A stretch of DNA of 64,000 nt, taken from NCBI GenBank assembly GCA_036679645.1, contig JAZDCY010000076.1, positions 1 to 64,000 on the forward strand, read 5' to 3'. The notes beneath the pieces are model-generated. The model had not been told where the DNA came from. It did no database searches and worked only from the letters and a program-made list of their open reading frames with translations. This DNA is from Gemmatimonadota bacterium. GTDB lineage: Bacteria > Gemmatimonadota > Gemmatimonadetes > Gemmatimonadales > GWC2-71-9. Positions 28,397-61,337 of the stretch are shown here, one piece after another (positions within the stretch are counted from its first letter, which is position 1; each line of letters opens with the position of its first letter). The translations under genes were made by a program, and so were the position numbers.

Positions 28397-28620
28397 GTGC
28401 CGGTCACGGCGAAGTTCTCGAAAGAGTTTTGGGAGTGGACTGGTTCAACGCTGTGGACGCTACTTACCGATCGGACTTCAAGGATCTATTCGACACGAGC
28501 TTCGGGAGGCTCGAAGCCATCCTCGACTCGCGGCTTGTCCAATTCGAGGCCAAGCTCGACCGGCGGTTGGTAGATATCGAGGCCAAGTGGGACAAGCTGT
28601 TCGCGGGCCTCAAGCGGGGA
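28397..28620 (+). pseudogene. Degraded paralog of the coiled-coil gene at 60822-61337
   Basis: RBS GAGGAG, then 'MPVTAKFSKEF' followed by a deletion/frameshift into 'VDWFNAVDATYRSDFKDLF'. Confidence 0.85.
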
Positions 28621-28647
28621 TGCTCGAGGCGCGGGCTCGCTCCTTCA

Positions 28648-28776
28648 TCATTTCCCTTGCAGCAATACCGGGTGGCGCAGGCTGCCGGTGGTCTTGATCT
28701 CCTGGACGAGCCGCGTGTTTGATATGGTATAGCGATCGGCGAGCGCGGTGGGGAGGCGGTCGAGTTGATCGGTCAC
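28648..28776 (-). pseudogene. eSTK 5' remnant with internal deletion
   Basis: MTDQLDRLPTALADRYTI|SNTRLVQEIKTTGSLRHP; its GTG overlaps the TGA of the upstream kinase. Confidence 0.8.
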
Positions 28777-31016
28777 GCGTCGAATTTCTGCCACTGGTGC
28801 TTCACCCGCTCCATGAGTTGCGAGAAACGGGCATCGCCCCGCAGACCGGCCAGGAAAGGGTCGTATTCGGAGAGAAACGGGTAGTTCGTAAACCTCCGGT
28901 TGGTTGCGGTTTCCAGCCAATCCAGAGCTTCGTCGTTCGCCCCCACCAACGCGTGACAGTCTGCCACCCACAACGCCCAAATCCCGAGTCGTCGCGCCAC
29001 CGTCGCAAGTTCGTCTTTGCAAAGCTCCAAGACTTGCGACTTGTCGTCTTTCCAAGCCGCGCTGAAGAGCGAAGCCAGCCACGCCACCAACGGACTGGTT
29101 TCTTGCTCGCGTAGAGTCGCAACAAGTGCATTGCACTCATCGAGGCGGCCAACGAATCGCAATGTGAGGATATAAAACCACGCGGCCACGACGTTTTGCG
29201 GATCTGTCTCATGGCCCTTGCGGATCGGCTCCAATGCATCCTCAAACCGGCCCTCCATCCAGTCTAGTAGCCCGGCGCAAAACCAGGTGACGGCCGTAAG
29301 GGGATCGATTTCCATTGCGTGCCGCATCAACGGGCGAGCAGCATCCACCCACCCGTGATACCCATAAAGCGTAACCAGGGTGAGTAGTATGTCGGGATCG
29401 TTTGGATCCAATCGTAGCCCTTCCTTCAAATGGCGGCTGGGATCGTCGTCTCTTTCTGGATCGAACCATGCCAGCCAGGCGCGGACCAAATGGCCCTTCG
29501 CCGAATCAGGGGTCAGCGCAAAACACTTCTCCGCACACTCATCGGCGTCGCGAAGCAACGACCGATCAAACCGAATGCCAGCGTTGTGGTACATGAGATA
29601 GGTGGTGCCGAGACCGGCGTAGAGCAGCGCATTGTCACCGACCAGCGCCAGCCCGTTCTTCAGGTGGCGCACCGCTCGGTCGAGGGCGTCGGGACTCATA
29701 CGCCAAAACTCGTGTCGCGCACGAAGATAGCACTCATATGCCTGCACGTTCTCGATCGGTCGCTCCTCCAGCTTCTGCTTTTCTTCCGGGCTCAGCTCGA
29801 GCGCAAGCGCGTCCGCGATCGCTCGCGACACGCTCTCCTGAATCTCGAAGACGTCGTCCATCACACCCGTATACTTCTCGGCCCACATGTGGGTGTCACT
29901 CTCGGCATCAATAAGCTGCGCCGTGATGCGGAGGTTTTTGCCAGCCTTTCGTACGCCACCTTCGAGAACGTATTGGCAATCGAGTTCGCGCCCGATGGTC
30001 CGTGTGTCCTTGTCCGTGCCTTTGAGCAACATGGCCGAGTTCCGCGAAATGACGCGCAACGCCGTGAGCTGCGAGAGGTCCGTGATGATCTCCTCGGTCA
30101 GTCCGTCTGCAAAGTATTCGTTGTCGGGATCGGGACTCATGTTGGTGAAAGGCAACACGACGATCGACATTACCCGCGCCGGCGCATCACCGCCGCGCTC
30201 CGACATGGCGGCTGCGAACGCTGATGCGCTCTCGAACCGATCCACCGGTGCCTTGCTGAGCGCCTGTTCTAGAGAAGTTGCAATTCCGGACGGGACACTT
30301 GGTCGCACGGTCGTGATGGGTGGAGGGGTGTCGGTCACGTGTCGCGCCATCACTGCACGGGTACTCGAGGCTACAAAGGGGGGATCGCCGGCAAGCATCT
30401 CGTACAGGACACACGCCAGCGAGTAGATGTCGGAGCGCAGATCGAGTTCCCGGTCACCGCCTACCTGCTCAGGACTCATGTACGCTGGTGTTCCCAAGGA
30501 GAGACCGGTTTCTGTCATGCGCTCGCCGCCCGCCGCGTCGACGGCCAACGCGATCCCGAAGTCGGCCACGATCGCCGCTCCGTCGTGCAGCAGGATGTTC
30601 TCAGGCTTGATGTCGCGGTGAATCACGTTATGGCGGTGCGCGTAGTCCAATGCATCCGCCACGTCGGTTACGATCTTGACGGCCTCTTCGATGCCGAGCT
30701 GCGTCTCACGATTCAGTTTGCCACGCAGCGTCTCGCCCTCGATGTAGGGCATGACGTAGTAAAGGAATGAATCCGCCTCGCCAGAATCGAACAGCGGAAG
30801 TATGTGTGGATGCTGCAAGTTGGCGGTGGTCTTGATCTCCTGCACGAAGCGCTCGGCACCCAGCACGGCGGCCAGTTCGGGGCGGAGCACCTTGATGGCG
30901 ACCTTGCGGTCGTGCTTGATGTCATGCGCGAGATAGACGGTGGCCATGCCGCCGGCGCCGAGTTCGCGCTCGATCGTGTAGCGATCCGCGAGGGCGGAAT
31001 TCAATCGGTCGATCAT
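28773..31016 (-). CDS. eSTK with TolB_N/FlgO-like and TPR domains, no TM segment
   Basis: HRDIKPEN, DFG and YMSPEQ; 'SIVVLPFTNMSPDPDNEYFADGLTEEII'; TPR-like helices. Start is 31016 (ATGA overlap) or 31031. Confidence 0.93.
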   Translation of the reverse strand: MIDRLNSALADRYTIERELGAGGMATVYLAHDIKHDRKVAIKVLRPELAAVLGAERFVQEIKTTANLQHPHILPLFDSGEADSFLYYVMPYIEGETLRGKLNRETQLGIEEAVKIVTDVADALDYAHRHNVIHRDIKPENILLHDGAAIVADFGIALAVDAAGGERMTETGLSLGTPAYMSPEQVGGDRELDLRSDIYSLACVLYEMLAGDPPFVASSTRAVMARHVTDTPPPITTVRPSVPSGIATSLEQALSKAPVDRFESASAFAAAMSERGGDAPARVMSIVVLPFTNMSPDPDNEYFADGLTEEIITDLSQLTALRVISRNSAMLLKGTDKDTRTIGRELDCQYVLEGGVRKAGKNLRITAQLIDAESDTHMWAEKYTGVMDDVFEIQESVSRAIADALALELSPEEKQKLEERPIENVQAYECYLRARHEFWRMSPDALDRAVRHLKNGLALVGDNALLYAGLGTTYLMYHNAGIRFDRSLLRDADECAEKCFALTPDSAKGHLVRAWLAWFDPERDDDPSRHLKEGLRLDPNDPDILLTLVTLYGYHGWVDAARPLMRHAMEIDPLTAVTWFCAGLLDWMEGRFEDALEPIRKGHETDPQNVVAAWFYILTLRFVGRLDECNALVATLREQETSPLVAWLASLFSAAWKDDKSQVLELCKDELATVARRLGIWALWVADCHALVGANDEALDWLETATNRRFTNYPFLSEYDPFLAGLRGDARFSQLMERVKHQWQKFDA

Positions 31017-31555
31017 CTCGCCGGCCCCCATGAAGGAATGCGCGCCGCCACTGCGGATCGAACCCGTTCGTCCAGGGCCTCCACCTCCGCAAGCCGGTCA
31101 CGGAGGGAATCGCCGTCAACCAAGCCGGCTTCGGTAAGGGCCCGACAGAACTCGATGTCTTTCGGACGGCCGGCGATCGCCTTCGAGATCCATAGGTCGT
31201 GGGGTTCCAGACACCACGCGACGACACCGTTGGTACCGGGGGTCTCGAAGCGCACCAGTCGATCGCGCCATCTTGCGGGCAGCACAGGCGTTGTCTCGAC
31301 CACGCCCTGTGCGTAGTACCCAAACGTCGCGTGGAACATCGATGCCTCGCCAATCGAGCCGTCGATCAGATCGGCCATGCTGCCGTCCGGGTCGTGCATC
31401 GCGGCCACGTCCACCTCTACAGAACGGGTGGCCTCGGCCGGCAGTTCGCCCGATACACTACCGTGCAGTGCCTGACTTCCTATCACCAGCACTTCACTCG
31501 CGCCGAGTACCGCTCCGGCCGCCCGGATGGCATGCTCGAACTCTTCTCGTTTCAC
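31013..31555 (-). CDS. Pol-beta-like nucleotidyltransferase (DUF6036-like), putative toxin
   Basis: 'LVIGSQAL...RSVEVDV' and 'DLWISKAIAGRPKDIEF'. Confidence 0.75.
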   Translation of the reverse strand: MKREEFEHAIRAAGAVLGASEVLVIGSQALHGSVSGELPAEATRSVEVDVAAMHDPDGSMADLIDGSIGEASMFHATFGYYAQGVVETTPVLPARWRDRLVRFETPGTNGVVAWCLEPHDLWISKAIAGRPKDIEFCRALTEAGLVDGDSLRDRLAEVEALDERVRSAVAARIPSWGPAR

Positions 31556-32058
31556 GAGGCACGCGTCTCTTCCTGCGTGAATTCACCATAGACCGCCGCC
31601 CGCTCGGCCGCGGACAGCACGCCGGCGAACGGCGTCACCTGACGAAGCTCCCTCGCCCACGGGTCGGGGTCCGTCAGGAGCGGGAGCAAAGCCAATAGAG
31701 GGCGATCGAGGATGGCCCGCCACTCCTCGAGCAACTGTGATGCGCCAGCCTGGCGCGCGGCCATGCGGTCCAGGTTATGCCGGGCCTGGGCCAGCACCCG
31801 TTGGGGCTCGTCAATGAGCCGCCGGGCGATGGCGCGATGCAGCGCGAGGGATCGGCGGTCTTCACGGGTGAGCGGAGGGTGGTATTCCACCCTTGCCTCG
31901 AGGCCCACCGACTCGGCGAGCCGTCGGAGCGTGGACACCGTAGGGCTCTTGCGATCCGCCTCGTACGCCGCGATGGTCGGCTGCGACGTGCCGGCAGCTT
32001 TCGCCAAGACGGTCTGGGTGATTGCAGCCTTGGCTCTCAACTCCCGAATGGCGTTCAT
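31552..32058 (-). CDS. XRE HTH protein, putative antitoxin
   Basis: 'ITQTVLAKAAGTSQPTIAAYEADRKSPTVSTLRRLA'; C-terminal 'LRQVTPFAGVLS'; 4-bp overlap with the NTase. Confidence 0.8.
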   Translation of the reverse strand: MNAIRELRAKAAITQTVLAKAAGTSQPTIAAYEADRKSPTVSTLRRLAESVGLEARVEYHPPLTREDRRSLALHRAIARRLIDEPQRVLAQARHNLDRMAARQAGASQLLEEWRAILDRPLLALLPLLTDPDPWARELRQVTPFAGVLSAAERAAVYGEFTQEETRAS

Positions 32059-43837: not shown

Positions 43838-45748
43838 ATGGCAATTTTCATAGGCCACTCAACAAACGCCAACAGAGCGCTCCGAGTCGCGGCGACACGT
43901 GGGCGCGTGCGTCAGCTTGCCCGCCGCATCTACTCGAGCGACTTCGATCGAGACCCGGAGATCCAGATTCGAGAGAATCTGCTCGGGATCTTGGGGCGAC
44001 TCCTCCCGGACTGGCATCTGTCGTACATCTCCGCCGTCACTTTGGCTCCGGTTGGTGGCCTGGTGTTTGTCTCAGGACCCGTCTCCAATTATCGCCGCAT
44101 CACTCTCCCGGGCGTTACCGTCGTGCGGCAAAAGGACATGCGATATCCGGAGATCGCATGGATTGAGGCACCGACCCTTATCGGAACGACGTTGGAGAAT
44201 GATCCAGAGGTGGTAAGAGTTGGGCTCTCGAGTCCACTCCAAGCTGTGTTCGAATGTCTTCGACCTGCCCGACGGTACAAGGAGAAGCAGCTACCGAATA
44301 CAAAACTCGTAGAGCTTGCCCGAGATCTTAGCGTGGCTGATCGCACCCGCGCAGAATCGTTCGCTACCCGCAACGAACTGAAGACCGAATTGGCACGATT
44401 CACGAGCCTACTTGAAGCGGCTGATGCAGGTGACGCACTGTCAATTCGGCGACCAAATAGACTGCAGGCGTTCTTTTACGGATGGAAGATTGGTAGCCTG
44501 ACCGCGCTGGGGACGCGTGAGTTCCGCTTCGAGTATGCGGCTGATTGGGATGTCGAGCTGTCGCGAGAGCTGCCGCTGAACTCTGATCAACGAGCCAGTT
44601 ATGAGGGACCGCGTCTTCCGTCTTTTTTTGAGAATCTGCTTCCGGAGGGTTGGACCGAGAGTTGGCTCAGCGCTGCGCACAAGATCGCCCGTGACGACGT
44701 GTTTGGAATGCTCACGACTACATCGAAGTACCTGAGCAACATCACGCTGCGCTCTCCCGAATTCACACCGAGCGAACTGGTATTCGACACACACTCAGCA
44801 TTACTCAAAGACGTTGCGCCCCGGCGTGACGTAGTGCTGAGAGTAGGTGATGAGATTAGCGAAGACCCTGAGAGCCGGGATCTGTGGATGGCGCTTCGCA
44901 ATCAGGGTGGCGTGCGACTATCGGGCATCCAACCGAAGCTACCGATATCGATGGTAATCAAGAGGGGACGACCGCTTCTTCGTCTTGGTGGAGTCCGGAC
45001 CGCCTGCGGACACATACTCAAGCTGGAATCGGCAGTATACCCGAACCTGATTGAGAATGAATGGGCGACCATGGACTTGGCTCGGCGTATTGGAATGACC
45101 ACTCCCGACTTCAGACTTGTCGAGTTCGAGTCTAGGAGTCGACTCCGAGGACGCGGATTGTTGATCGAGCGATTCGACATCCCTAAGGAGGAATCGCCTC
45201 TAGCCATTGTCGAGGACGTGTGCTCGCGGATGCTGCTCCAGCGTAGCGAAAAGTACACCGTGTCCCTCGAGCGGGTCACGAGCGCCCTCCAAGACGCCGG
45301 CCTTCCCGCAGAGGCTAACAACACCGGTCTGTGGGGATTCTTCAGGCATGTGTTGTTCTCGTGGATCATCGGGAACGGAGATCTGCACACCAAGAATATC
45401 TCCATAGTCCGTTGGATGAACCCAGGTCAATTGGGATCGAGCCCGACTTCACAAGGGGTCGAGTATTCGCCGGTGTATGATCTGCTCAACACGCGCCTGC
45501 CGTTGCCAGGAGATCAATTTGCGTTGACGATCAACGGACGCCGAGACCGTTTACGGATTCGCGATCTCGAGGTGCTCGCGACTCGTTGGGGCGGTGGGAC
45601 AGATCAGGTGAGAGATGTCGCGGGGACAATGGTCGAGTCTGTGTTCGATCAACTGGATGACGTTCTGGAGGCATCCCTCATGCACGATAGCGAACGTGAT
45701 CGATATCGGCGCGTCGTAGAGGAAAACGTCAGTCAGCTGCGCATCTAA
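43838..45748 (+). CDS. hipA: HipA-family kinase with a long N-terminal extension
   Basis: HipA N-couple 'FFENLLPEG', 'LSGIQPK', 'HILK', 'LLIERFD', 'GNGDLHTKN' and 'SPVYDL'. Confidence 0.88.
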   Translation: MAIFIGHSTNANRALRVAATRGRVRQLARRIYSSDFDRDPEIQIRENLLGILGRLLPDWHLSYISAVTLAPVGGLVFVSGPVSNYRRITLPGVTVVRQKDMRYPEIAWIEAPTLIGTTLENDPEVVRVGLSSPLQAVFECLRPARRYKEKQLPNTKLVELARDLSVADRTRAESFATRNELKTELARFTSLLEAADAGDALSIRRPNRLQAFFYGWKIGSLTALGTREFRFEYAADWDVELSRELPLNSDQRASYEGPRLPSFFENLLPEGWTESWLSAAHKIARDDVFGMLTTTSKYLSNITLRSPEFTPSELVFDTHSALLKDVAPRRDVVLRVGDEISEDPESRDLWMALRNQGGVRLSGIQPKLPISMVIKRGRPLLRLGGVRTACGHILKLESAVYPNLIENEWATMDLARRIGMTTPDFRLVEFESRSRLRGRGLLIERFDIPKEESPLAIVEDVCSRMLLQRSEKYTVSLERVTSALQDAGLPAEANNTGLWGFFRHVLFSWIIGNGDLHTKNISIVRWMNPGQLGSSPTSQGVEYSPVYDLLNTRLPLPGDQFALTINGRRDRLRIRDLEVLATRWGGGTDQVRDVAGTMVESVFDQLDDVLEASLMHDSERDRYRRVVEENVSQLRI

Positions 45749-47581: not shown

Positions 47582-48769
47582 TCACGGGGCTAGCATCACG
47601 CGGACGGGTGTCACGCGGTCTTGCATTTCTCCGTCACCGAGTTGTCCGAACCTGCCAAAGCCCCAGCACCAAATTGCTCCATCCACTGACAGGCCGCACG
47701 TATGGGCGGCTCCAGCGCTGATCTCGACGAATTGCGCTTCGCCCGCCACAGATACCGGACTGTCCGCGTCATCGAGGCTACCGTCCCCGAGCTGCCCCAG
47801 GAAGTTGAGCCCCCAACAGTATGCGACCCCGCCAGCGGTAATCCCGCAGCCGTGTTCGCCACCGAGCGCGAGCGAGACGAACGACAGCGAGTCGGCCACG
47901 GCTACAGGGAGCAGGCGATCGCCCGTCACCCCGAGCCCTAGCTGACCGCGATCGTTGCTACCCCAACACCTCAAGCGGTCGCTGACTGTCAGCGTACAGC
48001 TCCGGCCGCCACCGGCCGCCACGGCGCGCGCTTGCAATGGGTCGGCCACGCGCACGGGCACGTCGCCCGAGCGTGTAGTGCCGTCCCCTAGGGCTCCGTG
48101 ACTGTTGACGCCCCAACAGAGCGCCGTTCCCGAGGCGGTGAGCGCGCAGGCGTGTTGTCTCCCCACGCTCACGCTGATCCACTCGTTGGACTGGAGCGCG
48201 ACAGGCGCTAGCGCATCATCTCCCGATCCTGTCCCGAGCTGTCCCCCGTTGCTGGTACCCCAGCAGTAGAGCCGCCCGTCGCGGCTCACGCCACAGGTTC
48301 CCTCCGTGCTTGCCCGAACATCCTGAAAGGCGATTCCGCCAGTCACCGCCACAGGTACGCTGCTTCCCTCGCGTGTTCCCGTACCGAGTTGCCCCGCAGC
48401 CCCTTCACCCCAGCAGTACGCGGCACCGTCGAGGGCAACCGCGCACGTATGATTGACGCCAGCGGAAACGGATTGATAGGACCGGTCTCCCTCGACCCGG
48501 ACCGGTAGTGCTGTAGTGGTGGTGGTTCCGTCGCCAAGCTGCCCAAAGGTGTTGCGACCCCAACAGCGTGCCGACCCATTCGCTGCAAGTGCACAGGTAT
48601 GCTCAGAGCCGGCGCTCACCGCGAACGGGGCGTCATCTGAAGGAGCCGTTGGATGTTCTCCTCCGCAGGATAGGACCAGACCTCCGAGGAGAGCTCTCAC
48701 CAGGCTGCGCAGCCGACATGTGCGCGTCAACCCACGCCCGAGCGTCGACGTATCTCGAACGTACCTCAT
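47582..48769 (-). CDS. RCC1/BLIP-II repeat lipoprotein
   Basis: VLSC lipobox and seven 'HTC....G...CWG.N..GQLG.G' repeats. Confidence 0.9.
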   Translation of the reverse strand: MRYVRDTSTLGRGLTRTCRLRSLVRALLGGLVLSCGGEHPTAPSDDAPFAVSAGSEHTCALAANGSARCWGRNTFGQLGDGTTTTTALPVRVEGDRSYQSVSAGVNHTCAVALDGAAYCWGEGAAGQLGTGTREGSSVPVAVTGGIAFQDVRASTEGTCGVSRDGRLYCWGTSNGGQLGTGSGDDALAPVALQSNEWISVSVGRQHACALTASGTALCWGVNSHGALGDGTTRSGDVPVRVADPLQARAVAAGGGRSCTLTVSDRLRCWGSNDRGQLGLGVTGDRLLPVAVADSLSFVSLALGGEHGCGITAGGVAYCWGLNFLGQLGDGSLDDADSPVSVAGEAQFVEISAGAAHTCGLSVDGAIWCWGFGRFGQLGDGEMQDRVTPVRVMLAP

Positions 48770-48996
48770 CGTCGGTACCGCCGTTCATAGTACTCGCGTG
48801 CGGCTTCGGCGCACGCCGTGTCCTCGACGAACCAGGCCTCGCCCCTGTCGACGAGCCACTCGCGTTCTGCGGGATCCCGTGCCGGTCTCGTCATTCCGCG
48901 CGTGTCAAACCGGCGCAGGATCTTCCTCAATGCCTCCCGTCGCGCGTCCCACGTTCGCCGAAGTTCCGTGAGGTCCAACAGTTCAGGCTGGCTCAT
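48766..48996 (-). CDS. Small basic hypothetical protein, partner of the upstream NTase
   Basis: 76 aa; 4-bp overlaps with both neighbours. Confidence 0.6.
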   Translation of the reverse strand: MSQPELLDLTELRRTWDARREALRKILRRFDTRGMTRPARDPAEREWLVDRGEAWFVEDTACAEAAREYYERRYRR

Positions 48997-49649
48997 GTGG
49001 CCGTATCCTCCTCACCCGCATCTTGGCCCTGCCTGAGGCGCTCAAGCAAGCGCCGGAGTTCCTCATCGCTCACGACCACGTCCCGCTCAGAGAGCGTGCG
49101 GAGCGCGTCCAGTGCATCCTCGGCGCCTTCCGTTCGCACGCGCTTCCGCAGCATGTGCTCATCCAGTGAGGCACCGAAGAGCGCGAGGAGGGCGATCGCC
49201 TGGGCGCCGTATGCGGTTGCGCCCCAGTGTCTGTAGCCGATAATCCGATCCGCTAGGACGACTTCCCGTCGTACCAGGCGAAGCGTCAGCGAACCCACGC
49301 TTACAACCTCGACCGGATCGGGCATGACATGTCCGGGTACCTCGACGAACACGTCGCCAAGTACCCAGTGACGACCCCGCCGCGAGAAGCCGAAGTCCGT
49401 GAGGGCAACATCGAGATCCTCCCGTGTCCTCCCCTCGACCACGAGATCGATATCGCTGGTGGTGTACACGTCCGATGCGTAAAACTCAATCGCTCCGCCA
49501 CCGACGAGAGTTGCCTGCATTCCGCGCTGTCGCAGCAACTCAGAGATGACGGCGGCGGCTACGGTCAGCTTCTCGACGTGTGGCTGGTCGCTCGCCAATG
49601 TCCGATCGAACAGATCCCGCAGTTCCGCCGCGGTCACGGGCTCTGGCAT
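48993..49649 (-). CDS. Pol-beta-like nucleotidyltransferase (DUF6036-like)
   Basis: '[10 protein letters not shown]....YTTSDIDLV' (GG...DxD). Confidence 0.75.
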
Positions 49650-49906
49650 CCGTCCGTTTCGCCCGAATCGAACAGCGGCAGGATATGCGGGTGCTGGAGA
49701 TTCGCGGTGGTCTTGATCTCCTGCACGAACCGCTCAGCGCCAAGCACGGCGGCGAGTTCAGGGCGCAGCACCTTGATGGCGACCTTGCGGTCGTGTTTGA
49801 TGTCGTGCGCGAGATAGACGGTGGCCATGCCACCGGCGCCGAGTTCGCGCTCGATCGTGTAGCGGCCGGCGAGGGCGGTGGCGAGGCGGGGGGTGATCTC
49901 GGTCAT
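49634..49906 (-). pseudogene. eSTK 5' remnant (subdomains I-IV, 90 aa)
   Basis: RYTIERELG...FDSGE is identical in protein to the 28773 kinase, then breaks into the NTase gene. Confidence 0.92.
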
Positions 49907-50460
49907 GAGTGTGCACCCCCAACTTCATCCCACTGCGCCGTGACGTCGAGCTCGCCGATCCAGTGTTCGAGGTATGTCGAGTCGAGTTGTCCGGCATGGA
50001 CTCGGAGCAGGGCCGCCACGTCCTCGAGCTGGCGCGCCGAGGCTCCGAGCTTCGCCCACTCCAACTTGGCGATGATGATGTCCTCCACCGTGGCCACCCA
50101 CAAGGGACACTCCTCGTACTCGGCCTCCTGGCGCCTCGCGAATTCCGTTTCGCTGAAGGCCCGCGTCTTCCGGACGATCAAGTCGACCTTCCACCCGCTG
50201 TTGGTGTCGATGACATTGAACATCGAGCGTTGCTCAAGAGCTTCCTCAGCCGCTTCGAGAGAGACATAGACACCCGTGTCCGCAAGCGCGCGGACCACGG
50301 CGCGCAGTTGCGCTGCGGTCGGATCGATGACAACGTCGATATCCATCGTCGCCCGCCCGGCCCCGTGGAATGCCGCCGCCAGGGAGCCCGTCAACATGAA
50401 GGGAATGCCGGCAGCGTCAAGCGCCCCGACGAGCGACCGGAGAAGGGCCGCCACGGTCAC
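49903..50460 (-). CDS. Pol-beta-like nucleotidyltransferase, putative TA component
   Basis: '[25 protein letters not shown]' and '[10 protein letters not shown]....S.RQLED'. Confidence 0.8.
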
Positions 50461-50681
50461 GCGGAGGATTCATCCGTTGGTCGCGGAACAAGCGACGCCC
50501 CACGTAGCAACTCCATCAGCTCCAACTCCGTCCGACCTGCGTGCAGTTCCTTGAGACGAGAGATCGCGAGGGCTCGGACCGATTCGCTCAACTCGAGCGC
50601 CCCGACCAAGCGTTGAAGCGGTGCGATCCGCCTGATCGCGTCCAGGCGTACAAGCTCGGCGGCCGGAGCGGTCTCACGCAT
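50457..50681 (-). CDS. Small helical protein, putative antitoxin of the NTase
   Basis: 74 aa directly upstream of the NTase with a GTGA overlap. Confidence 0.65.
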   Translation of the reverse strand: MRETAPAAELVRLDAIRRIAPLQRLVGALELSESVRALAISRLKELHAGRTELELMELLRGASLVPRPTDESSA

Positions 50682-50763
50682 GCATGCCGCCTTCGGCCAG
50701 TTGGCGCTCGATTGTGTAGCGGTCGGCGAGGGCGGTCGAGAGCTTGGACGTGATCTCGGTCAA
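50674..50763 (-). pseudogene. eSTK 5' remnant (29 aa)
   Basis: MTEITSKLSTALADRYTIERQLAEGGMHA*; its TTG overlaps the upstream kinase TGA. Confidence 0.88.
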
Positions 50764-53408
50764 TTCCCCACCTTCGCCTTCAACTCCTCGAACCAGTTGA
50801 GCACCACGTGGATCTCCCTGGCAATAGAAGTCGGATTCTTGACCCGTATCAGAAACCTCTCCCCGTCGTTCGTCACGGCGTAACTACCGGCCTCATCTGG
50901 GTGTTCCGGTACGACGAACAGAGGCCGGATATCGTCGACAGCGAACCTGGGCTCTGTTCGTACGGTCGCCGCAATCAGGATTGTGTCCTGCCAGAAGAAC
51001 AACTCACTCCCTGACGGTGCCCAGCGTGCGGAGCGGCCCTTCACCGTGGAGACCCTGATTGGGTCACTCACGTTTGGAAAGGATACGACGTACACCTGAG
51101 AGGTCCCACCTTCGTTCGACTCATAGGCCAGCCATGCGCCGTCGGGTGAGAACTGCGGATTCCATTCTTCACTGGGGGTCGTGTGGATCGGGATGCGAAT
51201 CGCCGGATCGTCGACGGCCACCACATACACGTCCGTTCCGGTGGCAGCCCATCCTTCCGAGACGGCGAGCCACTGCCCGTCGGGCGACCACGATCTCGGC
51301 CAGATTGCGTTCTCACTCTCGTAAAGGATCTCGGGCTCGGCGTCGCCGTCCACGTCCATCGTAAGCACGCGATGACCGCGCCCGTCCCCCGCATCCGACT
51401 GCCACGCGATACGGGCTCCGTCGGGTGACCAAACCGGCCAGCCTTCTGAACCCGCGCCGAACGTCAGCCGTCTAGGCGTGACCATTCCCTCTTCGAGAAG
51501 GTAGACGTCGTCGTTGAGCTGGTTGGGGAGGGTCATAGCGACGCGGCGTCCTCCGGGCTCGATCTCCAGTCCCCATGCGGCAGCAGCCGGTGGCCCGAAC
51601 TGTGACAGGCGCCGCCCTGTGCGATCGAACCAATAGTGCAGGTGGCGCTCCCAGGTATTCCCCCGCACAAAGGCCATGACTCCGGCGTCCGATACCGCGA
51701 ACGATGCACCGCCGCCCCATTGTCCGACTTGCACCCCCGACTCGACCGGGAACGATTCTCCTGTCTGTGCCTTGGCGCCCAGATCGAAGGGAACCGCCAG
51801 GATGGTGCCGTCTTCGTTCGCGTATACGACATGCCCGGACGGCACGTAATATCCGTATGCGGCATCCTCGACAACGGTCGTGCGCTCACCGGTCCTGAGA
51901 TCCTTCAGCACCACCTTCGAGTCGTGCCACTTCCCGCTGGTGCCGATCACCGAGAACAGCAGGAGCGACCCTCCAGCAAGCGATTGGGGCCACATGTGTT
52001 GGTTCTCGTCGGAGTGCCCAGTCAACGTCGTGATCGGCTCGGGCTCACCTTCCGCAACGGGAAGTCGCCAGATGCCCTGTGCGCCGCGTCCGTAGACCAG
52101 GAAACCATCCTCTCCCCAGTCCGCACCGTAGGTGTCTCCTGGGGCGTTGCCGATCGGAGTGATCACGCCTCCCTCCGACCGCATTCTCTTGAACACACCT
52201 ATCTGGAGGAAGCCTACCGATTCCCCATCCGGCGAAAAGAAGGGATTGTCAGCCCCGTTCGTTCCCGCCAAAGGCTCGGCGGTTTCCTGAGCAAGCTCTC
52301 GTAGGACCAGACCTCCGTTTTCGCCGTAGACGACGAAGCGCCCATCCGGTGATACCGCCAAGGATGACCGTTCGGCCTCTGCCATCTCGTGGCCACCAGG
52401 GACGGGGATCGTGAAGCGCACTGGATGAGTCGACGGCGGTGGACGCAGCCAGCCCCACGCGGTAGTAAGGAGGAGCAGCACGGCGACGACGGCGAGGCCA
52501 ACGCTCAGGCGATTCCACATTCCCGTTGTACGTGAACCCGCTACCGGCGCCGCCTGCATGGTCGGCAGGGTGAACACCGTGTTGGTCAATGCCTCGCCAA
52601 ACTTCGCCGCACTCTCGAAGCGGTCTGCCGCGAGCTTCTCCAACGCCTTTGCCGTCGCCGCTCCCACGTTCGGCGGCACCGACTTCCGTAACGCCGTCAC
52701 CGGCTGCACTTCTTCCGCGACGATCTTCATGATGATCTGCTGCGCCGATGAACCGACGTGCGGTGGGCTCCCGGTCAACATCTCATACAACACGCTGCCC
52801 AACGAGTAGATGTCGGAACGGTTTGTGAGATCCTTTTCGGCGGTCGCTTGCTCAGGACTCATGTAGTGCGGCGTCCCCAGCGAGAGCCCCGTCTCCGTCA
52901 TGCGCCCACCCGCCGCCGCGCTCACCGCCAGCGCAATCCCAAAGTCTGCCACCATCGGCCGGCTGTCATGCATCAGAATGTTCTCGGGCTTGATGTCTCG
53001 ATGGATCACGTTGTTGCGGTGCGCGTAGTCCAAAGCGTCCGCCACATCCGTCGTGATCTTCACCGCTTCCTCGATGCCGAGCTGTGTCTCGCGGTCGAGC
53101 TTGTCGCGCAGCGTCTCGCCCTCTATGTAGGGCATGACGTAATAGAGGAAAGAGTCCGCTTCGCCCGAATCGAACAGCGGCAGGATGTGTGGGTGTTGCA
53201 GATTCGCGGTGGTCGTGATCTCCTGCACGAACCGCTCGGCGCCGAGCACGGCGGCGAGCTCGGGACGGAGCACCTTGATGGCGACCTTGCGGTCGTGTTT
53301 GATGTCGTGCGCGAGGTAGACCGTGGCCATGCCACCGGCGCCGAGTTCGCGCTCGATCGTGTAGCGGTCGGCTAGGGCGGCCGTGAGGCGGGAGGCGTCG
53401 TCGGTCAT
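50760..53408 (-). CDS. eSTK with TM segment and TolB/PD40-like beta-propeller
   Basis: HRDIKPEN, DFG and YMSPEQ; TM segment; SPDG repeats; 'VVLNWFEEL' C-terminus. Confidence 0.95.
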   Translation of the reverse strand: MTDDASRLTAALADRYTIERELGAGGMATVYLAHDIKHDRKVAIKVLRPELAAVLGAERFVQEITTTANLQHPHILPLFDSGEADSFLYYVMPYIEGETLRDKLDRETQLGIEEAVKITTDVADALDYAHRNNVIHRDIKPENILMHDSRPMVADFGIALAVSAAAGGRMTETGLSLGTPHYMSPEQATAEKDLTNRSDIYSLGSVLYEMLTGSPPHVGSSAQQIIMKIVAEEVQPVTALRKSVPPNVGAATAKALEKLAADRFESAAKFGEALTNTVFTLPTMQAAPVAGSRTTGMWNRLSVGLAVVAVLLLLTTAWGWLRPPPSTHPVRFTIPVPGGHEMAEAERSSLAVSPDGRFVVYGENGGLVLRELAQETAEPLAGTNGADNPFFSPDGESVGFLQIGVFKRMRSEGGVITPIGNAPGDTYGADWGEDGFLVYGRGAQGIWRLPVAEGEPEPITTLTGHSDENQHMWPQSLAGGSLLLFSVIGTSGKWHDSKVVLKDLRTGERTTVVEDAAYGYYVPSGHVVYANEDGTILAVPFDLGAKAQTGESFPVESGVQVGQWGGGASFAVSDAGVMAFVRGNTWERHLHYWFDRTGRRLSQFGPPAAAAWGLEIEPGGRRVAMTLPNQLNDDVYLLEEGMVTPRRLTFGAGSEGWPVWSPDGARIAWQSDAGDGRGHRVLTMDVDGDAEPEILYESENAIWPRSWSPDGQWLAVSEGWAATGTDVYVVAVDDPAIRIPIHTTPSEEWNPQFSPDGAWLAYESNEGGTSQVYVVSFPNVSDPIRVSTVKGRSARWAPSGSELFFWQDTILIAATVRTEPRFAVDDIRPLFVVPEHPDEAGSYAVTNDGERFLIRVKNPTSIAREIHVVLNWFEELKAKVGN

Positions 53409-53420
53409 CTCCACTCCGCA

Positions 53421-53500
53421 TTCCGACGTTGAAGCGTCGGCTCGGCGGCGCTTCGCGCTGACACGTGTTGAAAGACCGGGCAGCGTCCTTCAGCCCGGGA
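53421..53500. repeat. REP-like hairpin cluster, copy 1
   Basis: CCGACG-TTGAAG-CGTCGG and related hairpins; aligns with 54408-54520, lacking 33 bp between CTTCAG repeats. Confidence 0.85.
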
Positions 53501-53502
53501 AC

Positions 53503-53581
53503 CGCCACCGGCGCGGAGTTCGTGCCCGATGCGGTAGTGGTCCGCTAGGGCCGCCGATAGCCTCCCAGTGATCTCCGCCAT
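53503..53581 (-). pseudogene. eSTK 5' remnant
   Basis: MAEITGRLSAALADHYRIGHELRAGG; the frame continues through the hairpins to a TGA overlapping the kinase ATG. Confidence 0.85.
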
Positions 53582-53791
53582 TTCCTAAGATGCGCTGCGG
53601 AACCGGCGTCTGCGAGCAGTGGCGACAACGGCAGCTGCGGTGGATGTCCGCGACCCCCTCGTTGATCAGGGGGAATCCATTCGGCGCGCACGGCGCCTGT
53701 TCGCGTGATTTCGGCTATGCCCCGTCGCAAGGCGCTCCCCATCATCTCGCATGCCTTGCACTACTCGGCCGAGGAGGATCAGATTATGGGC

Positions 53792-54337
53792 ATGCCCGCG
53801 TCACAGGCGATCTCTACGATCGCGGAGCTGCTCGCGCTACCGGAGGACGGCTTGCGCCACGAGCTGCTGGATGGTCAGCACGTCGTGACGCCGTCGCCCA
53901 AGCTCGCGCACCAGGGCATCCTGAGTCGCCTGTTCAGTCTCCTGTCCCCGGGTGTGGCAGAACACGCCGATGTGGTGCTGTGCTGGAGTCCGGCGGATGT
54001 CCATCTTGGGCCACGAACCCTCGTGCAGCCAGATCTCTTCATTGTTCGCCTGCCGGTTACCGGGCTTCACGCGTCGTGGCGGGACGTACCGACGCCGCTG
54101 TTGGTAATCGAAGTGCTCTCGCCGTCGACGGCCGCGCGCGACCGCGGTGCGAAGCGACGGATCTACATAGATGCTGGTGTCGAGGAGTACTGGATCATCG
54201 ACGTCGACGCGCGACTGATCGAGCGGTGGCGCCCACGCGACGAGCGGCCCGAGATCATCGATGGAGCGCTACAGTGGGAATTGAGCATCGGGCTGTCGGG
54301 CGTGGTGGACGTTACGAAGCTTTTCGAGGGGCTCTGA
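53792..54337 (+). CDS. Uma2-family (PD-(D/E)xK) endonuclease
   Basis: 'RHELLDG..VVTPSP...HQ', 'VQPDL', 'EVLSPST..RDRG.K...Y...GVEEYWIID'. Confidence 0.9.
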   Translation: MPASQAISTIAELLALPEDGLRHELLDGQHVVTPSPKLAHQGILSRLFSLLSPGVAEHADVVLCWSPADVHLGPRTLVQPDLFIVRLPVTGLHASWRDVPTPLLVIEVLSPSTAARDRGAKRRIYIDAGVEEYWIIDVDARLIERWRPRDERPEIIDGALQWELSIGLSGVVDVTKLFEGL

Positions 54338-54407
54338 AAGCCCGCGAGCAAACTCGTGGCCCTGCACCCTGTCGCTCAAACCGATGTTGGCGGTCGGTGG
54401 TCGCGCA

Positions 54408-54520
54408 CTCTGACGCTGAAGCGTCGGCTCGGTGAGCTTCACGCCGACACGTCTTGAAAGACGGCGCAGCGTCCTTCAGGACGCACCGCATCGCGCCGAG
54501 CCCGGGCTTCAGCCCGGGAA
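54408..54520. repeat. REP-like hairpin cluster, copy 2
   Basis: Four hairpins with TGAA/TTCA loops: GACGC-TGAA-GCGTC, CGTCT-TGAA-AGACG, GCGTCC-TTCA-GGACGC and CCCGGGC-TTCA-GCCCGGG. Confidence 0.88.
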
Positions 54521-54585
54521 CCGCCGCCGCCGCCGAGTTCGCGCTCGACTCGGTAGCGGTCGGCAAGAGCGTCGGCTGTGAGTTG
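54521..54585 (-). pseudogene. eSTK 5' remnant
   Basis: Minus strand reads ALADRYRVERELGGGG. Confidence 0.82.
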
Positions 54586-54617
54586 ACCACTCCTATACAG
54601 CGATGTATATACATCAT

Positions 54618-54875
54618 GTGATCAGGACGCAACTCTATCTCGACGAGAGTGTCCACCAACGGCTTCGCGAGTTGGCCAAGAAGCAGGGACGTACTATTTC
54701 CGATTTGGTGCGCGAAGCGGTCGCACGCGCGTACGGTGGCGGGCAGGTCGATGAGCGCATCACCACGCTTCAAGGGATAACCTCGCTATGGCGCGACCGG
54801 GACGACCTCGGGGCCACCGACGTGTACGTGAGGCGGCTGCGTCGCGATACGCGACGGCGTCGGGGGCGGGACTAG
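54618..54875 (+). CDS. vapB: RHH/CopG antitoxin
   Basis: 'MIRTQLYLD....RLRELAKKQGRTISDLVREAV'. Confidence 0.85.
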   Translation: MIRTQLYLDESVHQRLRELAKKQGRTISDLVREAVARAYGGGQVDERITTLQGITSLWRDRDDLGATDVYVRRLRRDTRRRRGRD

Positions 54876-55252
54876 CAGGGGTCCTCTACGACTCCGACAT
54901 CATCATAGAGATTCTCCGCGGCCGCAAACAGATTGTGCACGCAGCGACCGCGCTCGAGGACAGTGGTGTTCCCACGTACTGTACCGCGATTGCTTGGGCG
55001 GAGATCTACGCGGGGATTAGACCGGGCGAGGAACCGATCACACAGGCGTTTTTCGAGGCCCGGGGAGAGATCGTGTTGGATGGGCTCGTCGGCCGGCGCG
55101 CCGGAGCCTACTTGGCACGCTACTCAGGATCGCACGGCCTCGAGCTCGCCGATGCGTTGGTCGCGGCGGCTGCCGCGGCGTCGGGCGTCTACCTGTGGAC
55201 GCTCGACCGCAAGCACTACCCAATGCCAGACCTGAGGTTTTACGATCGGTGA
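54872..55252 (+). CDS. vapC: PIN-domain toxin; start codon unclear
   Basis: 'LYDSDIII.ILRG', 'WAEIYAG', 'LADALVAA' and 'LWTLDRKHYP'. Confidence 0.85.
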   Translation, partial: LAGVLYDSDIIIEILRGRKQIVHAATALEDSGVPTYCTAIAWAEIYAGIRPGEEPITQAFFEARGEIVLDGLVGRRAGAYLARYSGSHGLELADALVAAAAAASGVYLWTLDRKHYPMPDLRFYDR

Positions 55253-55273
55253 GCGCCCGCCGTCCCGCGCTCA

Positions 55274-55690
55274 TTAGCCAGGCCCCGGCTGCGCCTCGTC
55301 CGTCACGATCTCATGATGATCTGCTGCGCCGACGGTGATCGGGCTCATCGATCCCCCAGCTCCATCACCCACACGTCGCTCTCGTGCGAGCCCATGGTCA
55401 GGTAGAACTTCTGCCCGTCCGTAGCGAGTCGGCTGGCGCGTCGGGTCGTCGAAGCGGACCAGTATACGGCTGGGGCCGCCGCCTCGCGCCACCACCCGGA
55501 TCATCCACCCGGCGGCACCCTTCGCGAGATAGTACAGCAACGCCCCGTCCGGGGACCAAGTGCTGTAGAAAGCTTCGGCACCATCGGCCGCGTTCGACGT
55601 GAGCAGCCGTGGCTCCCCACCCGCCGGATCGAGGACCTCCATCCCGTCGGTGGCGTGATAGGCGATCTGGTCACCGCCAGTTCGTGTATG
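55274..55690 (-). pseudogene. Remnants of two tandem eSTK genes (a beta-propeller C-terminus, then a collapsed kinase)
   Basis: 'WSPDG...LVRFDDP...ESDVWVMELGDR*' resembles the 1243 kinase end. An ATGA overlap leads into 'MSPIT|SAQQIIM..VTDEAQP', matching the 50760 kinase C-lobe. Confidence 0.8.
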
Positions 55691-55767
55691 GGGCCGCTAG
55701 TCCGCTGGTCAACCCGGTCCCGTCCGCCTCTACCGTATAGACGTCACGATTGCCGTTCCGCAACGAG

Positions 55768-55852
55768 TGGGCCGAGTTCGCGCTCGATGGTGTAGCGGTC
55801 GGCGAGGGCGGTGCTTCGCGCCGACCCGTCTTGAAAGACGGCGAGCGCCCTT
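55768..55852 (-). pseudogene. eSTK 5' remnant preceded by a partial hairpin cluster (copy 3)
   Basis: CCGTCT-TGAA-AGACGG hairpin, then [15 protein letters not shown]. Confidence 0.82.
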
Positions 55853-55892
55853 CTCCTCCGACTTTGTCGCTCGTTCCGCCTTCCTATACTGG

Positions 55893-57926
55893 TCACGGCA
55901 CCGGCGTCACGGCCGCGTCGAGATGTGTCTTTATCCACTCGATCCAATTCCGATAGACGTCGAGTCGGCGTACCGGATCGCCGGGGAAATGTGTGCGGCC
56001 GGGATACAGCACAAACCTGGTCTCCACCCCGTTGTCGCGCAGCGCGTGGAACAGCTTGTACGACTGCGTGACCGGCACGCGAAAATCCTGCGTGGACGAC
56101 ATGATGAGCGTCGGTGCGGTAATCTGCGTGGCGTAACTGATGGGAGATTGCTCGCGGTATTCCTCCCGCCGATTGTCGGTCCACGGCGAGCCACCCATGG
56201 CGTAACGCATGTTCACGTTGAAATCGGCCATGTTGTACTGGTCTTCCAAATCGGTTACGGCGGCACCCGCCATTGCCGCGCGCCACGCGTCGGGATAGTT
56301 CCCGGCGAGCCACGATGTCATGTACCCACCGTAGGACCATCCAGTGACCGCCATGCGCGATCCGTCCACATACGGACGATCGTGCAGTTCCGCCACGCCG
56401 GCCATCACGTCACGTCCCGGTCCCGCTCCAGCATCGCCCACGATGGCCCGCTGAAACACCGTGCCGAGGTTGTCGCTGCCGCGGTAATTCGGCTGGAACA
56501 CGACCCACCCCTGGGCCGCCATCACCTGGCCGAGCGTCGAGAACGACGTCTTGGACGCCGACATCGGCCCGCCGTGGATGAGCAGCACTAGTGGATACGA
56601 CCGGTCGGGAGAGAAATCCGGTGGGTGGATGACCACGCCGTCGGGGGTATACGCGTCGCTCGTCCAGGTAATGCGTTCCATCCGGCCGAGCGCGTACTCG
56701 CCAATCCAGTCGTTGTAGTCGGTGAGCCGTCTTGGTTCCGTATGCGGTGACGACAGGTAGTACAGCTCGGCTGGATGGTCTGCCGTCGATGCCGTGAAGG
56801 CAATCGCGCCGTCGGGGCCCACCGTCACGTCGTACCCAAAGGCGCCCGAGATGACGAGGTCGCCCACGTCGATACGGCGCGCCCGGCCCTCGAGCGGATA
56901 CTGCCACAGTCCGACCGTCGTCTCGTGGTTGCCAGCGACCAGGAGGCTGCGGCCGTCGGGCATCCACTCGGACAGAAAGAGATTGTGGTCCAGCGGGCGC
57001 GTGAGCGTCCGTCCCGAGCCACCGTCTGCGGGAGCGAGCCATACCTCGTTGCCGCTCCAATAAGGCGCGGGGTTGTCCGGGTCGGCGACGGGAGACCAAT
57101 AGGCGATCGTGCGACCATCCGGCGAGTAGCTGGGCGTGGTCTCATAGGCTTCCGCCCCGGTGAGTGAGCTGCTCTCGCGTGTCGCGAGGTCGAGGATCTG
57201 GATAGTGGTCGAGTCGCCGTTACCGGTGTAGGTGTTGGGAAGACGCACGTAGGCCAGTGATGTGCCGTCGGGCGACCAGCGGATGGGGGATGGGGGAGAC
57301 CCCGGTGGCAGTACGAACTCCACACTCCACGTGCCCGAGGTGAGCCGTTCGGGCTTGCCGCCGTCTGTTGGCACGAACCACAGATGCGACGGCTGGATCG
57401 GCGCACCGAGAAAGATGTCGTTGTTGCCCGCCTCGAACATGTTCAGATACCGTTGCGCACCCTCCCGTTCAGGTTCGTCGTCCATGGTGACAAAGGCAAT
57501 CGCGGTCCCGTCGGGTCGCCAGGCGAACTGCTGCACACCCTGCTTTGCACTCGTGAGCGCGCGCGCGTCGCCGCCGGCCATCGGCATCAGGAAAAGTTGG
57601 GGTGTCTTGTTCGCGTTCGCCGCCAGAAAGCCGATGTACGCACCATCCGGGGACCAGGCGGGCTGTGAAGCTCCTGGCCGATCGTAGGTCAGCACGCGGC
57701 GCGTGCCGGATGCCACGTCCGCCAGGACCAGTTGCGCATCCAACCGGTTCTCCTCGTAGTTGGGCCGGGATACCACGAATACAATGGACGCGCCGTCTGG
57801 TGAGATAGCCGGACTCGAGACCCTGACAACGTTGCGTAGGGCGTCGAGATCGAGAGGTCGCTGCTGAGCGGTAGCCGGTGCAGCCGCCAGAGGAGCGACC
57901 AGTGCAGCCAGCAGTCCGATACGCAT
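55893..57926 (-). CDS. S9 family (prolyl oligopeptidase-like) peptidase, exported
   Basis: Signal peptide, SPDG propeller repeats, HGGP, GWSYGG, D(FRVP) and H. Confidence 0.93.
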   Translation of the reverse strand: MRIGLLAALVAPLAAAPATAQQRPLDLDALRNVVRVSSPAISPDGASIVFVVSRPNYEENRLDAQLVLADVASGTRRVLTYDRPGASQPAWSPDGAYIGFLAANANKTPQLFLMPMAGGDARALTSAKQGVQQFAWRPDGTAIAFVTMDDEPEREGAQRYLNMFEAGNNDIFLGAPIQPSHLWFVPTDGGKPERLTSGTWSVEFVLPPGSPPSPIRWSPDGTSLAYVRLPNTYTGNGDSTTIQILDLATRESSSLTGAEAYETTPSYSPDGRTIAYWSPVADPDNPAPYWSGNEVWLAPADGGSGRTLTRPLDHNLFLSEWMPDGRSLLVAGNHETTVGLWQYPLEGRARRIDVGDLVISGAFGYDVTVGPDGAIAFTASTADHPAELYYLSSPHTEPRRLTDYNDWIGEYALGRMERITWTSDAYTPDGVVIHPPDFSPDRSYPLVLLIHGGPMSASKTSFSTLGQVMAAQGWVVFQPNYRGSDNLGTVFQRAIVGDAGAGPGRDVMAGVAELHDRPYVDGSRMAVTGWSYGGYMTSWLAGNYPDAWRAAMAGAAVTDLEDQYNMADFNVNMRYAMGGSPWTDNRREEYREQSPISYATQITAPTLIMSSTQDFRVPVTQSYKLFHALRDNGVETRFVLYPGRTHFPGDPVRRLDVYRNWIEWIKTHLDAAVTPVP

Positions 57927-60821: not shown

Positions 60822-61337
60822 GTGCCGGTCACGGCCAAATTCTCGAAAGAGTTCTACGACAAGCTCGGCCATAAGGTGGCGGACGAGCTGGTGGACTGGT
60901 TCAACACCGTGGACGCGACATACAGATCGGATTTCAAAGACCTTTTTGCCGCCCACTTCGGGCGGCTCGACGCCAAGCTGGAACAGCGGTCGGCGGAGCT
61001 GCGAGCCGAATTCCGCACCACGATGAAGCAGCTCGACGCCAAGTTGGATCAGCGGATTGCTGAACTCCGTTCCTATGTCGATATCCGCTTCGCTGCCATT
61101 GAGAGTAGGCTCGAGCAGCTGGGAATCGAACTCAGGGCCTATGTGGATACGCGTTTCGCGGCACTGGAGAGCAAGATCGAGCAGCAGGTGACGGAACTCA
61201 GGGCCTATGTGGATACGCGTTTCGCCGAGCAGAACAGCAAGATCGAGCAGCGCTTGGGCCAGCTCGAGACCAGGATGATCCGCTGGATGTTCGTGTTCTG
61301 GGCGGGGACGGTTGGAACCCTCGTCGCGTTGCTCTAG
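60822..61337 (+). CDS. Coiled-coil protein with C-terminal anchor (DUF1640/CCDC90-like)
   Basis: Heptad repeats, 66-bp tandem repeats at 61062/61128/61194, and an 'IRWMFVFW' tail. Confidence 0.75.
   Translation: MPVTAKFSKEFYDKLGHKVADELVDWFNTVDATYRSDFKDLFAAHFGRLDAKLEQRSAELRAEFRTTMKQLDAKLDQRIAELRSYVDIRFAAIESRLEQLGIELRAYVDTRFAALESKIEQQVTELRAYVDTRFAEQNSKIEQRLGQLETRMIRWMFVFWAGTVGTLVALL

Follow-up and report, generated by a model that had tools for sequence, protein, structure and literature searches.

The window analysed here is a 64,000-nt stretch, C75:1-64000 of the Gemmatimonadota source genome G000 (4.05 Mb in 100 contigs, 92.7% complete, 64% GC). In it lies a tandem array of Ser/Thr kinase paralogues, now decayed, among which toxin-antitoxin (TA)-type genes and repetitive extragenic palindromic (REP) repeats are interspersed. 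A repeat from the 5' end of the kinase gene, here called the kinase start, occurs in six copies on the minus strand (55771-55813, 54532-54574, 53513-53555, 53340-53382, 50695-50737, and 49838-49880). The copy at 53340-53382 opens a full kinase gene and the other five are remnants, on which repeats, alignment, and profile matches agree; a preliminary description of this DNA was thus right that kinase 5'-end remnants separate TA-type modules. The cargo between the kinase starts comprises VapBC, Uma2, and two nucleotidyltransferase (NTase) modules. On a slight balance of probability, the remnants are scars of one-sided homologous recombination, in which cargo and a kinase start, moving as a unit, displaced resident kinases.

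A nucleotide profile built from 62 full kinase starts (E<1e-10 for a full start, E<0.02 for a truncated one) found 65 close full kinases and 34 truncated matches in G000, whereas the best match in the reversed genome had an E value of 0.84; the five remnants of the locus score between E 5e-20 and 8e-7. Removal of a split divergent kinase, a long unrelated open reading frame (ORF), and a frameshifted full gene left 31 remnants. The TA-type set used for comparison holds 55 genes of seven Pfam families; it is incomplete, includes Uma2, MNT, and GxxExxY genes, and owes its PIN and Uma2 families to their presence at this locus. Of the remnants, 16/31 have a TA-type gene no more than 1.5 kb away (11/26 with this locus excluded; 9 of 18 merged loci), compared with 12/65 full kinase starts (Fisher p=0.0015), 6/50 non-kinase gene fragments (Fisher p=2e-4), and 197 of 3589 gene starts overall (5.5%, with a simple gene caller); the kinase copies in these Fisher tests are not fully independent. 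The anticipated excess of TA-type genes beside truncated starts, relative to full kinases and to other gene fragments, is thus present genome-wide. Altogether, 21 of the 55 TA-type genes have a kinase start at a distance of up to 1.5 kb. For the full starts, the 12 TA neighbours all lie on the upstream side, a bias that arises in part simply from the kinase gene occupying the downstream side.

Layout of the array

The features of the array and its flanks are given below in the direction of the minus strand.

55893..57926, minus strand: S9 peptidase gene, upstream flank; full kinases come next in two relatives
55813..55856, minus strand: REP-like hairpin piece leading into remnant 1 (repeat family D10)
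55768..55815, minus strand: kinase-start remnant 1, codons about 9-23 (repeat and profile match)
55357..55784, minus strand: frameshifted pieces of a beta-propeller tail, corresponding to residues about 679-703 and 774-883 in a paralogue of 886 aa (blastx)
55274..55348, minus strand: collapsed kinase piece, start codon and residues about 227-241 (91% nucleotide identity)
54875..55252, plus strand: VapC-type PIN gene (PF01850; start codon approximate)
54603..54875, plus strand: RHH antitoxin-type gene (PF01402)
54523..54575, minus strand: kinase-start remnant 2, to about codon 26 (profile match)
54400..54522, strand not applicable: REP array, TTCA/TGAA-loop hairpins
53705..54337, plus strand: solo Uma2 putative endonuclease (PF05685)
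53504..53581, minus strand: kinase-start remnant 3, 26 codons (profile match)
53417..53503, strand not applicable: REP array, 87% identical to the array at 54412-54479
50760..53408, minus strand: full Ser/Thr kinase with PD40 beta-propeller tail, 882 aa
50683..50763, minus strand: kinase-start remnant 4, 81 nt, overlapping the full kinase stop; CATG microhomology with the next start codon
50457..50681, minus strand: 74-aa ORF, likely antitoxin, kept upstream of the NTase in relatives; no family match
49903..50460, minus strand: AbiEii-like NTase (PF08843); its stop overlaps the next kinase start
49634..49906, minus strand: kinase-start remnant 5, 255 nt, in a 90-aa ORF; 91% identical to the full gene
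48993..49649, minus strand: second NTase-like gene, DUF2204/DUF6036-like (Pfam below cut-off; Atlas cluster resemblance)
48766..48996, minus strand: 76-aa ORF, no family match, overlapping the NTase-like stop and the RCC1 start
47582..48769, minus strand: RCC1-repeat gene, downstream flank

The RHH and PIN genes stand in VapBC order with both families above cut-off, and toxin activity is predicted from their sequences. This pair and Uma2 are inverted relative to the kinase starts, and the AbiEii-like NTase lies on the minus strand. The NTase match scores 26.1 bits against a PF08843 cut-off of 22.5, and for its 74-aa partner, a candidate for the AbiEi antitoxin role, the Pfam scan gives no family. 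The 76-aa ORF likewise has no significant match in the Pfam scan; both small partner ORFs may act as antitoxins. The second NTase-like gene has no Pfam match above cut-off; in the Atlas, it resembles DUF2204/DUF6036 clusters. Along the stretch that leads from the full kinase to RCC1, each stop overlaps the next start or is at most 15 nt away from it. The module composition given in the preliminary description holds, except that Uma2 has no partner gene; likewise, most modules are bounded by kinase starts as it claimed, but the last one is flanked by a kinase piece on just one of its sides. The description's propeller remnant and collapsed kinase are genuine too. Remnant 1 and the propeller tail pieces represent an internally deleted kinase. 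Because these pieces follow remnant 1 and a start codon is joined to residues 227-241, two kinases have collapsed in place.

A second such site exists at window positions 28435-32058 (cargo named by inspection alone), with an HTH-type gene, an NTase-like gene overlapping a full kinase start (31031, minus strand), then a kinase remnant (28776), and a short coiled-coil gene in inverted orientation. Another coiled-coil protein, with three 66-nt repeats, is encoded at 60822-61337; genes like it adjoin kinase starts at window position 28435, near position 110500 of G000 C4, and in genome G015. The window also contains a broken kinase gene at 1243-3820, composed of a 364-aa front and a separate propeller tail, and at 43838-45748 a HipA-family kinase of 636 aa that has an additional N-terminal region and lacks an obvious HipB neighbour. 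Elsewhere, a kinase start is fused in frame to the next reading frame at G000 C61:68372 and at L043:1952-2353, and a PIN gene, a kinase remnant, and a partial second PIN copy at G000 C32:55700-57550 represent a local duplication.

Breakpoints and exchange among kinase paralogues

Orphan kinase pieces are concentrated at the 5' end. Over successive 28-codon windows of similar score, they number 29, 13, 6, 3, 3, 0, 4, and 4, the last being largely contig ends or distant kinases. A search with the final 40 residues of the main tail type, which recovered 10/12 genes in leave-one-out trials, returned four orphans, located at the tails of broken genes; this count covers the main tail type, the second being too diverse. 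The polarity is therefore that of 5' kinase starts and not of 3' toxin tips with immunity genes. Because the 3' ends of the remnants spread over nt 48-443 (21/31 at or under nt 105), the remnants appear as decay from the start codon, with no fixed site. The single conserved boundary envisaged in the preliminary description is thus not supported: breakpoints are scattered, and the mosaic signal described below extends over about the first 100 codons. A single recombination site is rejected in view of this spread and of the weak folding of the kinase-start core, whose medians (-7.6 and -8.3 kcal/mol) are little better than those of the control (-6.1 and -6.5 kcal/mol).

The likeness to integron cassettes drawn earlier also finds no support in attC sites or a nearby recombinase. 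Between 48.7 and 55.9 kb, no attC core pairs (RYYYAAC...GTTRRRY, searched as a plain motif) occur 30-130 nt apart on either strand. No tyrosine recombinase is encoded on contig C75, and nine PF00589 matches, some of which may be IntI-like, lie elsewhere in this 93%-complete genome. The region gave no match to an XerD-arm motif at up to two mismatches, though the dif of this lineage may differ from that motif. By the attC, recombinase, and crossover-point tests, the array is not an integron.

Our analysis shows that kinase 5' segments have been exchanged between paralogues. Genes C4_103152 and C4_110215 are 94% identical over codons 1-35 and then fall to 75-58%, the background level; they also share an upstream remnant and a REP pair, and their kinase bodies are unrelated. 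Unitigs (assembly units from the sequencing reads) at this site contain no variants and break at the shared stretch, and the chimera holds under either phasing. In 8 of the 25 genes with a 5' partner at 85% identity or more, the same partner ranks below tenth in the body. Discordant best partners per 33-codon window amount to 8/27, 12/31, 9/28, 6/34, 7/30, 5/26, 4/30, and 1/32 from the 5' end onward (synonymous sites alone are too noisy for this comparison). The median four-fold-site identity of paralogue pairs is 0.42-0.46, with one pair at 0.95 or above, and these values do not support recent genome-wide gene conversion among the paralogues. The view of the kinase 5' end as a recombination joint is supported as far as segment exchange is concerned and not supported as to a single conserved boundary.

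Kinase starts in related genomes

The kinase family is expanded in all 25 genomes searched, with 12-122 profile matches, G000 having the most. Beyond the flanking peptidase, a single full kinase is present in the same-genus genome G002; in G017, the peptidase is followed by a pair of full kinases, a hairpin-bearing remnant, and a further start. Module content at the locus therefore varies among relatives, as had been expected. The succession of remnant, TA pair, and full kinase was found again in other genera: G022 has it, a single G247 array contains two instances, and G013 shows it on inspection. Near-complete relatives have fewer remnants, and G000 is an extreme case; three of four apparent truncated starts in G018 are frameshifted full genes and were left out of the remnants. 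Among 28 PIN-centred loci of other genomes (including two from the unpublished G016, both negative, a genome used for no other result), a kinase start is present in 5, all full by the threshold used. Because G018 C4:447-477 kb (L138-L139) has eight PIN matches in 30 kb and no kinase start, TA clustering does not require kinases. As a separate observation, a three-gene operon unrelated to TA systems is bracketed by two kinase remnants in G310 (L188:2064-5102).

Relatives of the AbiEii-like NTase were collected from 107 loci. A kinase start lies on the right in 8 of the 98 loci with enough flank (including this locus), and because these eight comprise one clade (support 97/88; 5/6 members), a pair, and one further row, the NTase-kinase coupling may have few origins. 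The left joints vary. At this locus, an 81-nt remnant ends at CATG; the remnant in G247 measures about 50 nt, L028 and L030 lack one, L029 has an internal kinase piece, L041 retains 88 codons plus tail, and the remnant in L043 is also longer. The module thus has a homologous arm on one side, the kinase start to the right of the NTase in 5/6 clade members, and a variable, microhomology-type joint on the other; deletion would yield the same pattern. For the second NTase-like gene, this query found no relatives among the searched genome contigs.

Origin of the remnants and relation to known systems

Under displacement, an incoming unit of cargo plus kinase start would land in a resident kinase and truncate it at some point 15-150 codons from its start. 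The anchor would come from RecA-type pairing within the conserved N-terminal portion of the kinase gene, and a microhomology joint would close the left side (homology-facilitated illegitimate recombination). The left joint would tend to fall inside the resident kinase because the start overlaps an upstream stop or carries a promoter; the remnants would couple translation to the cargo, and addiction would keep TA pairs while kinase bodies go. The 5' bias, the TA enrichment, the C4 chimera, and the retention of the right-hand kinase start with varied left joints argue for such displacement. In-place deletion has acted too, as remnant 1 and its tail show, and the two processes overlap; the idea of remnants as insertion boundaries does not suit all of them, some being in-place deletions.

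Several observations weigh against displacement. (i) A kinase start follows within 4 kb downstream for only 16/31 remnants, and in eight remnant-to-full pairs, comparison of the remnant with the body of the next full kinase gave no consistent ranks, which favours neither displacement nor deletion. (ii) Because the paralogues are old by their four-fold-site identities, they are a poor substrate for frequent recombination, and such recombination is orders of magnitude rarer than ordinary recombination according to PMC5361080. (iii) A 3' tail, the mark of in-place deletion, has survived with remnant 1 and with the remnant of L041, and in L028, L186, and L190, TA pairs sit between full kinases with no remnant present, a layout from which deletion alone could readily start. 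(iv) In the near-complete G027, TA pairs stand before full kinases without remnants, and in five other genomes, 5 of the 150 best among 185 matches fall in frames under 200 aa, at least one of these five being a frameshifted full gene (short remnants may be among the 35 lowest-scoring matches, outside this set). (v) In 12 chosen stretches of the same-genus G001, seven remnants have no recognisable TA neighbour; those checked adjoin acyltransferase, beta-lactamase-family, and ankyrin genes. Cargo is thus not restricted to TA and defence genes, contrary to what the preliminary description had supposed.

A less probable explanation, though one to be taken seriously, is that the remnants are deletion scars only: TA pairs entered long ago between tandem kinases whose bodies were later lost in place, addiction protecting the TA pairs and the 5' ends surviving through overlap with an upstream stop or through a promoter. 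The tailed remnants, the collapsed kinase piece, the full-TA-full precursor layouts, and frameshifted full-length kinase genes in G000 are in line with it. So are the overlap of 7/31 remnants with an upstream stop codon and the motif YATCTT, possibly the -10 box of short-leader promoters, which occurs within 50 nt upstream of 11/31 truncated and 21/65 full starts, compared with 117/3320 genes. TA stabilisation has been modelled (PMC2654758), but the same source reports that some chromosomal TA pairs fail to prevent deletion. Deletion alone also leaves unaccounted for the C4 chimera, the N-terminal concentration of mosaics, and the occurrence of one NTase module downstream of differing kinases, each time with another short remnant; 3' orphans are few.

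The other alternatives have lower probabilities. The hairpins of the locus are REP-like repeats that match the flanks of a Y1 transposase gene on contig C50, and a hairpin-flanked Y1 transposase with scattered intergenic repeats is characteristic of a system of REPs and their associated tyrosine transposase (RAYT); this applies to the hairpins and not to the array. A RAYT might cut and join single-stranded DNA at a REP-like sequence in the kinase start, delivering REP arrays and TA cargo, which we regard as improbable. Of the intergenic REP-like hairpins with this type of loop, 34/89 are at most 350 nt away from a kinase start (many being copies of one array), a Y1 gene ends 41 nt upstream of a full kinase, and the REP linker CTCGGC is present in many kinase starts. 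But CTCGGC is as common in full genes (23/65) as in remnants (11/31), a REP lies just downstream of only 6/31 remnants, remnants in G001, G022, and G247 have no such hairpin under the loop definition used, breakpoints are spread, and shared REP arrays may hitch-hike with kinase starts. Because remnants occur without hairpins, we read the hairpins more as cargo than as cause. The Y1 gene just mentioned is a RAYT-type gene between REP hairpins at G000 C53:97277-97749; a related REP array precedes six full kinases (G000 C8:49747, 55362, 118855, and 121733; C68:2369 and 5437), and at C8:118855 a 17-nt kinase-start copy stands ahead of the array.

It is very doubtful that kinases and TA pairs are co-regulated stress or defence operons whose adjacency is under selection. 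NTase-kinase coupling is conserved across genomes, the TA neighbours of full starts are all upstream, and the kinase domain matches PD-T4-6 models (a generic kinase match); on the other hand, the same position is taken by toxin families unrelated to one another and by non-TA genes, the neighbouring kinase is often dead, and most NTase relatives have no kinase on the right. Least probable of all is a metagenome mis-join at the repeated kinase start. The assembly has 100 contigs and unitigs end at kinase starts, so that module order across the repeats rests on the assembly. However, unitigs of the probable source run show no differences from the stretch at a depth of about 100x, and within them, at even depth, lie the joints at 49649, 50683, 53504, 54523, and 55770; this run holds 97% of the stretch and is probably the source sample, hence no independent confirmation. 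(Runs X2-X4 hold small shares of the stretch and kinases of other organisms, and their joints were left out.) In addition, the remnants are diverged rather than identical copies, and the layout recurs in other genomes, including the 9-contig G022. The three outcomes named at the outset as fatal to the array interpretation, namely no TA excess, invariant content, and misassembly, did not materialise.

The array resembles several known systems. Like the effector-immunity arrays of type VI secretion (T6SS) in Vibrio cholerae, for which sequential displacement was proposed (Kirchberger et al. 2017, PMC5361080) and which their authors compared with integrons, it combines modules and gene remnants without an integrase, with a proposed one-sided homology anchor and illegitimate joint. 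In V. cholerae, the anchor lies upstream of the module at a small number of single-copy clusters, and older immunity genes are shifted further downstream; in the present array, the kinase start downstream of the cargo would serve as anchor, it exists in about 100 copies, what stays behind as a scar is a 5' piece, and cargo and kinase have no relation to each other. The orphan cassettes of polymorphic toxin/Rhs/contact-dependent inhibition systems (Zhang et al. 2012, PMC3482391) also have a coding-sequence arm and strings of partial genes, but their toxin tips, 3' pieces accompanied by immunity genes, join up again with an invariant 5' body, whereas here the orphans are 5' starts and the cargo remains a separate gene. 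With integrons and superintegrons, the array shares a variable row of small TA-rich modules separated by a repeat, and it differs in its lack of attC core pairs in the region, of a tyrosine recombinase on the contig, and of joints at a fixed base. As in REP-TA hotspots such as Escherichia coli folA-apaH (Delihas 2011, PMC3184786), REP hairpins and TA genes share variable intergenic sites; as in REP/RAYT systems, the genome has RAYT-type genes, but some remnants have no REPs with them, and the boundary that recurs consists of coding DNA. A literature search covering few subscription journals found no description of kinase-start remnants bounding TA modules. Thus, the mechanism class is known, and the substrate and scale appear to be new.

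A broader proposal, which we consider rather unlikely, is that an expanded signalling family doubles as an integrase-free capture system across the order, with about 100 kinase starts per genome as interchangeable landing pads. Such a system would take in TA, defence, and ordinary genes, the retained start providing a promoter and translational coupling; kinase sensor tails would be reshuffled in the same events, possibly with the help of a domesticated RAYT. The data point to an expanded mosaic kinase family, of which the literature search turned up no description. Its arrays offer natural replicates for the question of whether chromosomal TA pairs are captured via homology or kept by resisting deletion. 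If displacement is the true origin of the remnants, a large paralogous family would provide TA modules with a series of integration hotspots that need no recombinase, which would explain the clustering of TA genes at kinase arrays in this lineage.

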